Shown piece after piece: positions 612 to 51,669 of a stretch of 64,000 nt of DNA; position 1 is the stretch's first letter, and each line of letters begins with the position of its first letter. The notes under the pieces are model-generated. The model worked only from the letters and a program-made list of their open reading frames with translations. It did not search any database and had not been told where the DNA came from. The translations under genes were made by a program, and so were the position numbers. The DNA lies in the NCBI GenBank assembly GCA_030682375.1, contig JAUXOL010000016.1:18577-82576 (forward strand). The letters are read 5' to 3'. The stretch is from Gallionella sp. Lineage in GTDB: Bacteria; Pseudomonadota; Gammaproteobacteria; Burkholderiales; Gallionellaceae.

Positions 612-1511
612 TTAACCCTGAGCGGCGGCAGCGGCAGCGGCCACTTCAGCTGCGTAGTCTTCCACCTTCTTCTCGATGCCTTCGCCGACCACGAACATCT
701 GGAACGCGGTCACCGTAGCGCCCTTGCTCTTCAGCAATTGCTCGATGGTCTGCTTGCCGTCTTCAGCCTTGACGAACACCTGGCCCAGCAGCGTCACTTC
801 CTTCAGGAACTTCTGCACGGTGCCTTCGGCGATCTTCTCCAGCATCGCTTCCGGCTTGCCGGATTCCTTGGCCTTCTCGATCGCGATACGACGCTCGGTC
901 GCGATGTCTTCTTGATTCACGCCGGATGCATCGATGGACTTCGGCTTGCTTGCAGCGATGTGCATCGCGATGTCGCGCCCCATGGCCTCGTCGCCGCCGG
1001 TGAAGTTCAGCAGCACGCCGATCTTGCTGCCGTGCAGGTAGCTGGACAGCGTGCCGGTGGAAGTCTCGTAACGCTCGAAGCGGCGGATCGTGAGGTTCTC
1101 GCCCAGCTTCATCACCAGCGCCTTGCGCACTTCTTCGACGGTGCCGGAGCCGTTAACCAGCGCCATGCCGGACAGCGCTTCGATATCGGCCGGATTGCTC
1201 TTCGTCACCGTCTCGGCGACGTTCTTGGCGAATGCGATGAAGTCGTCATTCTTGGCCACGAAGTCGGTCTCGCAATTCACTTCCACCACGGAGCCGGTCT
1301 TGCCGTCAGCCGCGATAAACGAGCTGACCAGGCCTTCGGCGGTCACGCGCGATGCGGCCTTGCTGGCCTTCGCGCCGCTCTTGATGCGCAGCTGCTCTTC
1401 AGCTTCCTTGAAGTCGCCGTTGGATTCGACCAGCGCCTTTTTGCATTCCATCATGCCGAGACCGGTAGCCTCGCGCAGTTCCTTGACCATTGCTGCGGTA
1501 ATTTCTGCCAT
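612..1511 (-). CDS. tsf: Elongation factor Ts
   Basis: [32 protein letters not shown]; rpsB-tsf-pyrH order. Confidence 0.99.
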
Positions 1512-1534
1512 GTTCTACTCCATAAAAAACTTAT

Positions 1535-1558
1535 AAAAAAAGGGGCTCGCGCCCCTTT
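1535..1558 (-). terminator. Intrinsic terminator/attenuator-like hairpin between rpsB and tsf
   Basis: AAAGGGGC-TCGC-GCCCCTTT stem with a T-tract on the minus strand. Confidence 0.6.
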
Positions 1559-1575
1559 CTGCGCGGTGCCGAAGC

Positions 1576-2301
1576 TTAAGCAGCCGCAGGCTCGGAAACT
1601 TCCTGAACCAGTTCGGTCAGCGCCTGAGCACGACCTTCCAGGATCGCGTCGGCGATGCCGCGAGCATACAGGCGGATAGCCTGAGTCGAGTCATCGTTGC
1701 CAGGGATCACATAGTCCACGCCCAGCGGGGAGTTGTTGGTATCGACGATGCCGATGACCGGGATGCCCAGCTTCTGCGCTTCGACGATGGTGCCCTTCTG
1801 GTAACCGACGTCGATCACGAAGATCGCTGCCGGCAGACCCTGCATGTCCTTGATGCCGCCCAGGCTACGATCCAGCTTTTCCAGTTCGCGCGACATCATC
1901 AGCGCTTCTTTCTTGGAATACTTCTCGGTCGCGCCTTCGGCAGTGATCTGCTCCAGATCGCGCAGACGCTTGATCGACAGTTGCACGGTCTTGTGGTTGG
2001 TCAGCATGCCGCCCAGCCAACGGTAGTTGACGAACGGGGAACCCGCGCGCACTGCCTCTTCCTGGATGATGTCGCGTGCCTGACGCTTGGTCGCCACGAA
2101 CAGGATGGTGCCCTTCTTGGCTGCCAGCTTGCGCACGAAGGCTTCAGCCTCGGCGAACTTGGCGACGGTCTTTTCCAGGTTGATGATGTGAATCTTGTTG
2201 CGATGGCCGAAGATGTACGGTGCCATCTTGGGATTCCAGAAACGGGTCTGGTGACCGAAGTGGACACCTGCCTCCAGCATTTGACGCATAGTTACAGCCA
2301 T
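1576..2301 (-). CDS. rpsB: 30S ribosomal protein S2
   Basis: [24 protein letters not shown] motif. Confidence 0.99.
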
Positions 2302-48464: not shown

Positions 48465-48536
48465 TCGAGAGCCGACCATCGGCTCTACGGGGCGCGCATT
48501 ATAACGAAAAAGCGAGACAGGTCAAGGACATCGAGC

Positions 48537-49319
48537 CTACGCGACGACCAGCGAACGCTGCCGAACCGCCTCGAACAGGCAGACCGCGGTCGCGGCGGCC
48601 GCGTTCAGCGACTCGACCTTGCCGGGCATCGGTATCGTGAAACGCCGTGTAGCCGCGTCCTGCAAGGCTTTGGACAGCCCTGCCCCCTCGTTGCCGACCG
48701 CAAAGGCGAGATCGCCGCCGAGGTCGCAATCGTACAGCCCGGCGTCGGCCTGCAACGAAGCCGCGAACACGGTTCCCGGCAGCGTCGCCGCGACCGCCAA
48801 CAAGTCCGATGCCTCGTAGATGGATAGCGCGAAATGCCCGCCCATCGCCGCGCGCAACACCCGAGGCGACCAGGCGTCGGCGCAGCCCTTGGACAGATAC
48901 ACCGCATCGCAGCCCGCCGCCGCCGCCGAGCGCAGCATCGAACCGAGGTTGCCCGGGTCCTGAATGTCTTCCAGCAACAACGCGAAGCGGCTGTCGGCCG
49001 GCAGCGGCTGCGGGATATCGACCAGCGCGAGTATGCCGGTCGGCGTCTTCAGCTCGGTGAGTTCGGCGAACAGCTTGTCGTCCAGCTGCGTCATAGCCAC
49101 GCCGGAGGCTCGCTTCAGCAAGGCCTCGACCTCATCGTCCTTCAGCGCCGCACTGTTCAGCAGGATATTCAGCGGCAGCTTGCCCGAATCCAGATACGCC
49201 GCAAGGAGATGCGTTCCATCCAGCAGCGTCTGCCCGGCCTTGCCGCGCTGACGCGCCGAACCGGCGAGTTTGACGAGTTCTTTAAAAAAGGGATTGTCGT
49301 GCGACTGGATCAGTTTCAT
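48537..49319 (-). CDS. TrmH/SpoU family RNA methyltransferase
   Basis: IQDPGNLGSMLRSA, VGNEGAGL, ESLNAAAA. Confidence 0.95.
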   Translation of the reverse strand: MKLIQSHDNPFFKELVKLAGSARQRGKAGQTLLDGTHLLAAYLDSGKLPLNILLNSAALKDDEVEALLKRASGVAMTQLDDKLFAELTELKTPTGILALVDIPQPLPADSRFALLLEDIQDPGNLGSMLRSAAAAGCDAVYLSKGCADAWSPRVLRAAMGGHFALSIYEASDLLAVAATLPGTVFAASLQADAGLYDCDLGGDLAFAVGNEGAGLSKALQDAATRRFTIPMPGKVESLNAAAATAVCLFEAVRQRSLVVA

Positions 49320-49337
49320 TGCTTGTCATCTTTCTCT

Positions 49338-49408
49338 GTAGGGGCGCGATTTATCGCGCCCGATTTCATCGCCCCATCGTCATTGGGCGCGATAAATCGC
49401 GCCCCAAC
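49338..49408. repeat. Family-1 REP doublet inside the RAYT C-terminus
   Basis: GTAGGGGCGCGATTTATCGCGCCC ... GGGCGCGATAAATCGCGCCCCAAC. Confidence 0.9.
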
Positions 49409-49610
49409 GGGGGCATCTGGATTTTCGCGGTCGATTGCCCATTGCGCTGGATTATTGGCAATGTACTCGCGAATCTCCTGCAGCGAGGATTCGCTGCGGA
49501 TGATGTGCTCGTAATAATTGCGCTGCCAAATCGATACGCTTTGCATACCGCGCAACCTATTAATGCCATGAGTACAACGCGCCTTGTATGCCCGGACGAT
49601 ATCCCCAACC

Positions 49611-49634
49611 GTAGGGGCGCGATTCATCGCGCCC
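49611..49634. repeat. Single family-1 REP inside the RAYT coding region
   Basis: GTAGGGGCGCGATTCATCGCGCCC encodes GAMNRAPT on the minus strand. Confidence 0.9.
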
Positions 49635-49938
49635 AAATCGTTCAGCACCACAACACCATGAACATGATTCGGCATCACCACGAACGCATCCAGTTCGATA
49701 CCCGAAAAATATTCAGGCAATTGATCCCAAAGACGCTGCACCAAATGTCCGGCCTCGTTCAACCTCACGACATCACCATCCACCGCACCGAATAAACAGG
49801 CCCGTTCATGGGCGCACAATGTGACGAAATACGCCCCAGCCTGCGAATAATCGTAACCGCGCAGACGGATTGAACGGCGATGGTGAATGCAAGGATCGAA
49901 TGATGGCGTATCGGGCATGCTAAATCGCACAGGGGGTT

Positions 49939-49962
49939 GGGCGTGATGAATCACGCCCCTAC
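49939..49962. repeat. Family-1 REP variant upstream of the RAYT
   Basis: GGGCGTGATGAATCACGCCCCTAC; compensatory C-G to T-A stem change. Confidence 0.85.
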
Positions 49963-50005
49963 GGATGCTGGGATTCGCATTTCCATGTGCAAGACATTCC
50001 TCCTT

Positions 50006-50093
50006 GTAGGGGCGCGATTCATCGCGCCCGGATTCGTGAATACATCAATTTGCGTATCGTGATTATTATGGGCGCGATAAATCGCGCCCCTAC
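50006..50093. repeat. Family-1 REP doublet between scpB and the RAYT
   Basis: GTAGGGGCGCGATTCATCGCGCCC ... GGGCGCGATAAATCGCGCCCCTAC. Confidence 0.92.
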
Positions 50094-50096
50094 GGT

Positions 50097-50897
50097 TCAC
50101 GATCGGTCGGTCGCCGCGTCGTCAGGACCGAAAGGCCAACCTTCGGGGGCATCCGTCTCCGCATGCGGCAGGCTAGGGATCGGCACCGAGGCGGATGCCG
50201 GTATCGCGACGGATTCGGGTTCCGCCATCTGCTCAGGAGCAGGCGCGGGCGCGGCTTCGATCCTTGCTTCCTGCTCCAGCAGCGAACCTATCTCCTGCAG
50301 CGACGGCAGATCGCTCAACATGCGCAGATTCAGGTCGTCCAGCATCTGCTTCGTGGTCGCGAACAGCTCCGGCTTGCCGGGCGCATCGCGGGTGCCGACG
50401 ACCTCGACCCAGCCGCGCGCCTCCAGTGTTTTCAATATCTGCGATGACACCGCGACGCCGCGGATTTCCTCGATGTCGCCGCGCGTGACCGGCTGGTGGT
50501 AGGCGATAATCGCCAGCGTCTCCAGCACCGCGCGCGAATAGCGCGGCGGCTTCTGGGGATTCAGGCGATCGAGGTATTGCTGCATCTCGGGCCTGGCGCG
50601 GAAGCGCCAACCGCTGGCGACGCGAGTCAGTTCGACGCCGCGCCTCTGCCAGTCCAGCGCCAGCGATTCGAGCAAGGCTTCCATCTGACGAGTGTCCAGC
50701 GACACGTCGCTGAGCTTCTTCAGTTCGGATACCGACAACGGTTCGGTCGTGGTCAGCAGCGCGGTTTCGAGCACGATCTTGAACTGCTCGGTGTTCATCT
50801 TCCCGCCGAACAGATCGACGCTGATCGCGCTGGCATCATCACCCCCTGCGGGAGCGACGTCACTCTGCTGCTTCAATGGCTCGGCTTGTTCGGACAT
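50097..50897 (-). CDS. scpB: SMC-Scp complex subunit ScpB
   Basis: [34 protein letters not shown]. Confidence 0.95.
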
Positions 50898-51669
50898 AGA
50901 TACTCCCAAATGTTTCGCTTTGCTGGATTTCCACCAGATATTCCTTCGCCAGTTCGAGCACGGCGATGAAAGTCACCACCAGTTTCGGCACGCCGCCATC
51001 CAGATCGAACAACTTATCGAAGAGCACGAACTCGCCGCCCTGCAAACAGCGCAGCACATGCGTCATCTGCTCGCGCACCGACAGTTGTTCGCGGCGCACC
51101 TTATGGTGCTTGTTCAGCTTGGCTCGCGCCAGCAGCCCCATCCAGGTCTGGCGCAAATCTTCGACGCTGACCTCGGGCAGGCGCTCCTGCACGGTGCGTT
51201 CGATCAGCACCTGCACGATCTGGAAATCGCGCCCGGCCTGCGGCAGCTCGTTGAGTTTCTGCGCGGCCTCCTTCATCTGCTCGTATTCGAGCAGGCGGCG
51301 CATCAGTTCGGCGCGCGGATCTTCCGGCCCCGTCTCGCTGAGCTTGGGCTGCCGCGGCAGCAGCATGCGCGACTTGATCTCGATCAGCACAGCGGCCATC
51401 AGCAGATATTCCGCGGCCAGCTCCAGCCGGTTCTGCTGCATCAGCTCGATGTAACTCATGTACTGCCGGGTCAGCTCCGCCATCGGGATGTCGAGCACAT
51501 CGAGGTTGTGCCTGCGGATCAAGTACAGCAGCAGGTCGAGCGGCCCCTGAAAGCTTTCCAGCACCAGTTCCAGCGCATCCGGCGGGATGTACAGGTCCAG
51601 CGGCATCTCCAGCAGCGGCTCGCCGTGGATATGCGCGATGGGATGCAATGGCAGCTGGGTTCCGCTCAT
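50860..51669 (-). CDS. scpA: Segregation/condensation protein ScpA
   Basis: [34 protein letters not shown]. Confidence 0.95.

Follow-up and report, generated by a model that had tools for sequence, protein, structure and literature searches.

Within a 64,000-nucleotide stretch of a Gallionella sp. genome (GenBank assembly GCA_030682375.1, contig JAUXOL010000016.1, positions 18,577 to 82,576; hereafter the window), a gene for a REP-associated tyrosine transposase (RAYT, or TnpA-REP) stands among six copies of a repetitive extragenic palindrome (REP), one of which is translated in the middle of the enzyme. We consider it very probable that this locus is a REPtron of TnpAY1 subclass 2.4, that is, a single-copy, domesticated gene for a Y1 HUH (histidine-hydrophobic-histidine) nuclease/strand-transferase flanked by cognate GTAG-footed REPs. 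The internal REP is an inherited trait of the whole subclass, and the variable loop that holds it connects the HUH strand with the next helix.

The RAYT scores 25.1 bits against Pfam Y1_Tnp (cut-off 23, E=2e-5), and across an alignment of 26 homologues (A1) both histidines of its HUH motif, H85 and H87, and the complete WQRNYYEH segment are invariant. A homologue profile that aligned the HUH and Tyr regions pairs YIANNP with YIYINP of the E. coli TnpA-REP structure 4ER8. When an AlphaFold2 model of the protein (mean predicted local distance difference test score, pLDDT, 77; core above 90) was submitted to Foldseek, 4er8_A matched at a root-mean-square deviation of 3.4 over 140 columns; there were further hits to the transposases of ISDra2, IS608 and IS200 (2xma, 2vjv and 2f4f), with E values, 4er8_A included, of 1e-5 to 1e-4; the product is thus predicted to have the Y1 HUH transposase fold. 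Its ATG start (MPDTPSFD) is conserved in both orthologues described below (L101 and L102), and the alternative start, a GTG at 49954 inside a REP, would give a protein of 212 aa.

The window holds six copies of GTAGGGGCG[C/T]GATT[C/T]ATC[G/A]CGCCC, all within 49338-50093, and the same pattern, counted in 100 shuffles of the window, gave 0 matches. Each REP folds as an 8-bp DNA hairpin (-9.7 to -11.2 kcal/mol); the stem is GGGCGCGA/TCGCGCCC. Three of the copies flank the RAYT on its 5' side, occupying the 178 nt between the scpB stop and the RAYT ATG, where an inverted pair (50006-50093) begins 3 nt past that stop; two flank it on the 3' side as a second inverted pair (49338-49408), which folds as a single long hairpin of -31.5 kcal/mol. 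The remaining copy directly follows the HUH strand, in frame, and its translation, GAMNRAPT, forms in the AlphaFold2 model the coil between strand 85-92 and helix 104-123. The GTAG form of this internal REP lies on the template strand, and the coding strand has its complement. Coordinates are collected in Table 1.

Table 1. Genes, protein motifs and REPs of the RAYT locus, in window coordinates.
Feature	Position	Strand	Remarks
RAYT / TnpA-REP open reading frame	49316-49918	minus	200 aa from ATG (MPDTPSFD); from the list of open reading frames
HUH motif NHVH	49658-49669	minus	residues 84-87, read from sequence
WQRNYYEH ('WQ' signature of subclass 2.4)	49505-49528	minus	residues 131-138
Tyr motif YIANNP	49448-49465	minus	residues 152-157; Y152 presumed catalytic tyrosine
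Intragenic REP	49611-34	+	minus-strand translation GAMNRAPT, residues 96-103
Tail REP	49338-61	+	GTAG foot
Tail REP	49385-408	-	GTTG foot
Upstream REP, GCGTGAT/ATCACGC stem variant	49939-62	-	21-44 nt before RAYT ATG; contains the alternative GTG start
Upstream REP	50006-29	+	part of inverted pair 50006-50093
Upstream REP	50070-93	-	part of inverted pair 50006-50093
ATGA stop/start overlap	49316-49319	minus	RAYT TGA 49316-18, trmH-like ATG 49317-19
scpB	50097-50909	minus	Pfam SMC_ScpB E=4e-47; start codon uncertain; 5' of cassette
SpoU/TrmH-family RNA 2'-O-methyltransferase gene (trmH-like)	48537-49319	minus	Pfam SpoU_methylase E=1e-32; 3' of cassette

A sequence-only reading of this DNA had described an intact RAYT with cognate REPs translated in frame, lying on the same strand between scpB and trmH, with three REPs upstream, a REP doublet encoding about 30 C-terminal aa (the last ~28 by our count) and a stop that overlaps the trmH-like start as ATGA, and all of this was borne out. 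Three of its details needed adjustment. The range it gave for the RAYT, 49316-50093, is that of the whole REP-RAYT-REP cassette, of which the open reading frame fills only a part; the GTAG tag is present on most REPs, but one tail copy has a GTTG foot; and the stem change it called compensatory exists, but is not unique to the locus, as the same GCGTGAT/ATCACGC variant forms a sub-family at at least four other sites of the genome.

By motifs and architecture, the window RAYT can be placed in TnpAY1 subclass 2.4 as defined by Quentin, Siguier, Chandler & Fichant (2018, BMC Genomics 19:475, PMC6006769), equivalent to RAYT Group 4 of Bertels. The criteria of these authors are an HuH motif NH[IFV]H, a WQ signature, YIxNNP, a length of ~194 aa and 'long' or 'double foot' REPs, the long ones having a GT[AG]G foot and three G-C pairs at the stem base. 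They describe a highly variable insert between beta3 and alphaC, name in-frame REPs between HuH and Tyr as a striking trait unique to the subclass, and report that genomes carry ~1.5 copies of the gene and few REPs and that the taxonomy is scattered, with Cyanobacteria and Bacteroidetes as the richest phyla (PMC6006769). The window RAYT has NHVH, WQRNYYEH and YIANNP, a matching length of 200 aa, a REP-encoded insert (GAMNRAPT) between beta3 and alphaC and flanking REPs of the long kind; it is also a single-copy gene whose cognate REPs are dispersed beyond the locus, as is typical of RAYTs. The layout, which the sequence-only reading had taken as a peculiarity of this gene, is therefore a published hallmark of its subclass, and we rejected the idea of an undescribed phenomenon because PMC6006769 states the presence of in-frame REPs in subclass 2.4 plainly. 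A literature search with the loop peptide strings returned no match, and Nunvar 2010, Di Nocera 2013 (PMC3733652) and Bertels 2017 (PMC5581495) do not mention an intragenic REP of the RAYT.

How general is the internal hairpin? In alignment A1, whose members include sequences from Gallionella, gamma proteobacterium HdN1, Desulfuromonas, Serpentinimonas, Methylohalobius and Desulfosoma, VGAxFIAP and GAMNRAPT share one loop and represent the two orientations of a REP in translation; the number of loop-peptide copies varies among homologues, and 'APT' is invariant. A broader survey covered 80 loci (L021-L100) from species-representative genomes of more than 12 phyla, 78 of them with a readable PNHxH...WQRNYYE segment. 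A hairpin of at least 8 bp lies in the HUH-Tyr loop at 64 of these 78 loci, against 6/78 and 1/78 for control coding segments of the surveyed genes, and 67 of the 78 loops contain a GT[AG]GGG-footed arm; six loci have no trace of a hairpin. The same 14-nt arm, allowing at most one mismatch, recurs outside the loop at 34 loci, mostly ~230-680 nt before or 290-480 nt after the HUH codons.

Many of the surveyed loops consist of a single 'double-foot' palindrome, GTAGGGGC-core-GCCCCTAC, with a 13-bp stem, and the cores vary by compensatory changes between loci (for example ACGGCATGCCGT, GGTTCGCGAACC, GTATTGCAATAC and GAAAAATTTTTC). Loop length varies widely over the 78 homologues and so do the peptides, among them VGAGLKPAPT, GRGTACRAPT, CRGGSRTAPT and VGAKNFSPL, all of which go back to GTAGGGGC...GCCCCTAC palindromes translated in one of two frames. 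Conservation of GAMNRAPT at the protein level was accordingly rejected as the sole cause of the pattern, since the loop peptides differ across the family. The REPs are read as GTA GGG in 44 cases and as xGT AGG in 14; the foot is GTAG in 58 of the 65 loop REPs in open frames, and where the third frame would make TAG a stop codon it is GTTG in all eight cases and never GTAG. The constant GTTG in this stop-generating frame is a neat sign that preservation of the reading frame overrides the sequence of the foot. Aligning homologues had been proposed in the sequence-only reading as a check on whether the REP-encoded loop and tail are hypervariable, and they are the most variable parts of the protein.

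A shortened member of the subclass was found in another genome of the genus. At L006 (G022:C42, ~1450-1833, minus strand), a subclass-2.4 RAYT homologue is cut to 127 aa; its frame ends eight codons past an internal double-foot REP (GCAGGGGCACGGCGCGCCGTGCCCCTAC), its 3' half is missing, and it abuts a convergent open reading frame for a membrane-transporter-like protein of 408 aa. The C-terminal half of this RAYT was not found elsewhere in that genome.

The history of the window locus can be read from its relatives. The cassette measures ~780 bp, and the inserted block runs from ~49337 to 50094. Four same-genus genomes have the empty site, with scpB followed by trmH across a gap of 3 to ~100 nt and with neither RAYT nor REP at the junction; at the empty sites of two genomes trmH starts 3-10 nt past the scpB stop. 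Two metagenomic relatives (L101 and L102) have the cassette at the same junction, with ~82% RAYT identity, and one of them has an extra gene of 558 aa between scpB and the RAYT. Elsewhere in the genus, matches better than E=1e-20 occur in 6 of 24 genomes, at only 49-57% identity and with other REP types. This distribution shows that the cassette entered between scpB and trmH in one sub-lineage of a Gallionella-like genus and was then inherited vertically. The ratio of nonsynonymous to synonymous substitution rates (dN/dS) between the RAYT core and its orthologues is 0.17-0.27 at a dS of 0.31-0.42; the neighbouring trmH, with a dN/dS of 0.09-0.15, has a similar dS (0.41-0.68), which fits vertical co-inheritance and continued function; these rates indicate that the RAYT core is under purifying selection.

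The REPs themselves have fared differently within this small group. The window and L101 have the same internal REP, letter for letter, and in L102 both of its arms are intact and the hairpin loop is longer by 30 nt, in frame. A copy of the GCGTGAT/ATCACGC type occupies the same upstream place in all three loci; its foot is GTAA in L101, and in L102 it differs by two further substitutions. The ATGA overlap is kept in L101, and L102 has a 50-nt gap instead.

The C-terminal tail also differs between these loci. The inverted pair 49338-49408 is translated as VGARFIAPNDDGAMKSGAINRAPT (VGARFIAP...GAINRAPT) and encodes the last ~28 RAYT residues, and the tail consists of these REP-pair residues followed by six codons of the trmH leader (EKDDKQ); in the AlphaFold2 model its pLDDT is below 50 and it is predicted to be disordered. 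The tail owes its existence to the open frame of the downstream REP pair: small indels brought this frame into register, so that translation continues through the trmH leader as far as the ATGA. In L102, the RAYT stops at the TAG of the GTAG foot of the downstream REP and ends ...ENPNAP without a tail; only one downstream REP is present, and the gap to the trmH start is 50 nt. In L101, as in the window, differences of 1-3 nt just before the REP leave the frame open, a second, inverted REP is present and translation reaches the ATGA; the L101 tail carries an extra 15-nt duplication. Because the L102 orthologue ends at the GTAG foot and has no tail, the tail is a lineage-specific read-through, extending over the downstream REP pair and on into the leader of trmH, and not a built-in part of the enzyme, which is where we depart from the sequence-only reading. 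Given that trmH lies 3-10 nt from the scpB stop at the empty sites of two genomes, the ATGA overlap may restore translational coupling of trmH.

Expression of the RAYT is most simply modelled as read-through. The scpB, RAYT and trmH-like genes are co-oriented within a trpS-scpA-scpB-trmH string, and a promoter/terminator scan of the minus strand, whose counts were at shuffle level, found no terminator-like site from trpS to trmH, nor any convincing promoter 5' of the RAYT; a weak 9/12 promoter-like site inside the RAYT was all it gave there. In this context, operon transcription would simply continue through the RAYT. Between the upstream REPs lies a strong Shine-Dalgarno-like AAGGAGG (49999-50005, minus strand), and 6 nt past it a TTG (49990-49992) opens a 13-codon minus-strand open reading frame whose TGA (49951-49953) overlaps the alternative RAYT GTG (49952-49954) as GTGA; the AAGGAGG is missing from the orthologous locus L101 and may therefore be fortuitous. 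Beyond the trmH-like gene, between it and rpsF, an 11/12 match to a sigma-70-like promoter (TTGACC-16-TATAAT; 48498-48525, minus strand) suggests that the rpsF-priB-rpsR-rplI string has a promoter of its own.

By analogy with 4ER8 and with the RAYTs studied in PMC8266576, the enzyme would bind a single-stranded REP through its GTAG foot and stem, and not the complement. It would then be expected to cleave at a dinucleotide near the REP, forming a 5'-phosphotyrosine link, and to transfer the strand, activities that could maintain a small genomic population of REPs, mostly as inverted pairs. Such a population exists. The assembly (2.78 Mb, 22 contigs) holds ~39 REP units at ~20 sites on seven contigs, so the REPs are not confined to the locus, as a genome-wide count suggested in the sequence-only reading was meant to establish. 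The majority form inverted, head-out dimers separated by spacers of 18-51 nt, the usual form of REP doublets forming hairpins (REPINs); 21 units match the consensus GTAGGGGCGCGATTCATCGCGCCC exactly, the intragenic copy has this sequence too, and several copies are degenerate.

Apart from those of the RAYT, the REP units are intergenic or sit at gene termini, close to an end of a stop-to-stop frame, one case (C13:131842) being ambiguous. Long open frames that have REPs at their 3' ends (C5:158724-158747 and C3:166676-166743) contain the REP translation VGARFIAP at positions 472-480 of 490 and from 255 onward of 267, respectively, and other genes of this genome may also end in REP-encoded residues. 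The RAYT is the sole subclass-2.4 gene of the genome. Two other Y1 HUH paralogues, at C5:284692-284946 (+) and C15:48528-48941 (-), have motifs of the types PDHAH...YVVSNP and PDHLH...WQHRYWEH...YVHYNP, and no GTAGGGGC-type REP was found within 400 nt of either.

Several points weigh against the assignment of the locus to a working REPtron of this kind. The RAYT falls below the cut-off of the NCBIfam equivalog NF047646 (REP_Tyr_transpos; 65 bits vs 80, E=6.7e-18), its activity is a prediction from the family, and the REP family is small and does not in itself demonstrate current activity. Moreover, the internal hairpin is near-universal, including about half of the loci where there is no matching copy within 3 kb; this exceeds what a purely neutral passenger model needs, and so leaves room for a function.

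One such function, which takes up the self-nicking or diversification inferred in the sequence-only reading and to which we give a small chance, would turn the REPs inside the gene and in its tail into functional substrate sites: the enzyme would bind or nick its own gene or the hairpin in its mRNA, with self-limitation, autoregulation or diversification of loop and tail as the outcome. The retention of the hairpin at 64 of the 78 surveyed loci, often with no visible flanking copy, agrees with this proposal, as does the contrast between the internal REP, whose arms are identical in three orthologous loci despite a dS of 0.3-0.4, and the upstream extragenic copy, which is mutated in two of the three; identical arms, however, amount to few sites and could reflect homogenization. 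The internal copy also has the commonest REP sequence of the genome, and close relatives differ precisely in REP-encoded parts, by the 30-nt loop insertion in L102, by the 15-nt tail duplication in L101 and by the gain or loss of the second tail REP. The truncation at L006, just past the internal REP, is only a hint in the same direction. Against these observations, the insert is peripheral in structure: Quentin et al. modelled it far from the DNA-binding and catalytic sites and read it as a tolerated extension (PMC6006769), and the AlphaFold2 model of the window RAYT gives the same impression. The GTAG foot is essential for cleavage in the RAYTs tested (PMC8266576), and the feet in the stop-generating frame are always GTTG, so that selection protects the frame at the cost of the foot. 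Six of the 78 loci also do without any trace of the hairpin.

A related proposal, which we regard as unlikely, is that the internal REP is a working cis element of subclass 2.4, serving as a protected anchor copy and/or a self-limiting site, and that the REPIN tail has been retained at this locus because it brings back the tight stop/start coupling of trmH to scpB seen at empty sites. It would explain both the persistence of the internal hairpin at loci without flanking copies and the site of truncation in L006.

A third reading, more doubtful still, is that the RAYT and its REPs are inactive fossils of a past invasion and the in-frame REPs its scars. The low copy number of ~39 units would suit a relic, as would the degenerate copies, which include the GTTG foot in the tail, and the patchy occurrence of homologues in the genus (6 of 24 genomes at the threshold given above). 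The motifs are intact, however, and a dN/dS of 0.17-0.27 accumulated over a dS of ~0.3-0.4 points to continued purifying selection; nor would 21 consensus-identical units be expected of old, unmaintained intergenic repeats. A one-off recent insertion of a REP into this gene, or a chance resemblance, which a first impression from a single locus might suggest, is refuted by the shuffles (0 matches vs six observed), by the presence of REPs in the same loop across more than 12 phyla and by the sharing of the internal REP among orthologues diverged at a dS of ~0.4, and has next to no probability.

With the REPtron as the preferred reading, what does this locus add? Its discovery value is low, because the central observation has already been published. 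It does offer a clean, dated example of a REP-RAYT cassette settling inside an essential operon, accompanied by empty sites, by filled sites at two orthologous loci and by a measurable degree of purifying selection, and it illustrates how a protein can gain translated residues from REPs, be it in a loop or in a tail. The broader question, noted in 2018, is why almost every subclass 2.4 RAYT keeps its own target hairpin in frame, and the window RAYT, with a single, simple internal REP, is a convenient subject for addressing it.

Compared with subclass 2.4 as described in PMC6006769, the window RAYT differs in no defining feature. Its host is a Gallionella-like betaproteobacterium, outside the phyla named as richest in the subclass, and the insertion into the scpB-trmH operon with its empty sites, the ATGA overlap and the read-through REPIN tail are local additions without a description in that paper. 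The TnpA-REP of the E. coli REPtron (YafM/RayT, PDB 4ER8, subclass 2.2/Group 2) shares the Y1 HUH fold, the GTAG-footed flanking REPs, the single gene copy and the domesticated state. In contrast to the window RAYT, it has DHLH, WE and YIHYNP as motifs, its REPs are long, bulged and present in many copies, its gene lacks an internal REP, and its sequence similarity to the window RAYT is only ~21%.

The Pseudomonas and Stenotrophomonas systems of Group 3/subclass 2.5 (Bertels & Rainey 2011; Nunvar 2010; Corneloup 2021, PMC8266576) resemble the present one in their REPIN dimers, their perfect 8-bp palindromes with a GTAG foot and the co-evolution of RAYT and REP; unlike it, they comprise hundreds of copies and have DH[LF]H motifs, and no intragenic REP has been reported for them. 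With the TnpA proteins of the IS200/IS605 family (IS608 and ISDra2), the window RAYT has in common the fold, the recognition of single-stranded hairpins and a guide tetranucleotide 5' of the hairpin, whereas IS608 and ISDra2 are mobile, multi-copy elements whose hairpins are the element ends and the window RAYT is fixed at one chromosomal site. Finally, the Rickettsia palindromic elements (RPEs) and the intragenic GTAG/CGTC REPs (Di Nocera et al. 2013, PMC3733652) provide parallels for palindromes that are tolerated in frame and translated into surface loops. What sets the window RAYT apart from these is that the host gene encodes the very enzyme presumed to act on the element, and that the position of the palindrome is conserved throughout the subclass.

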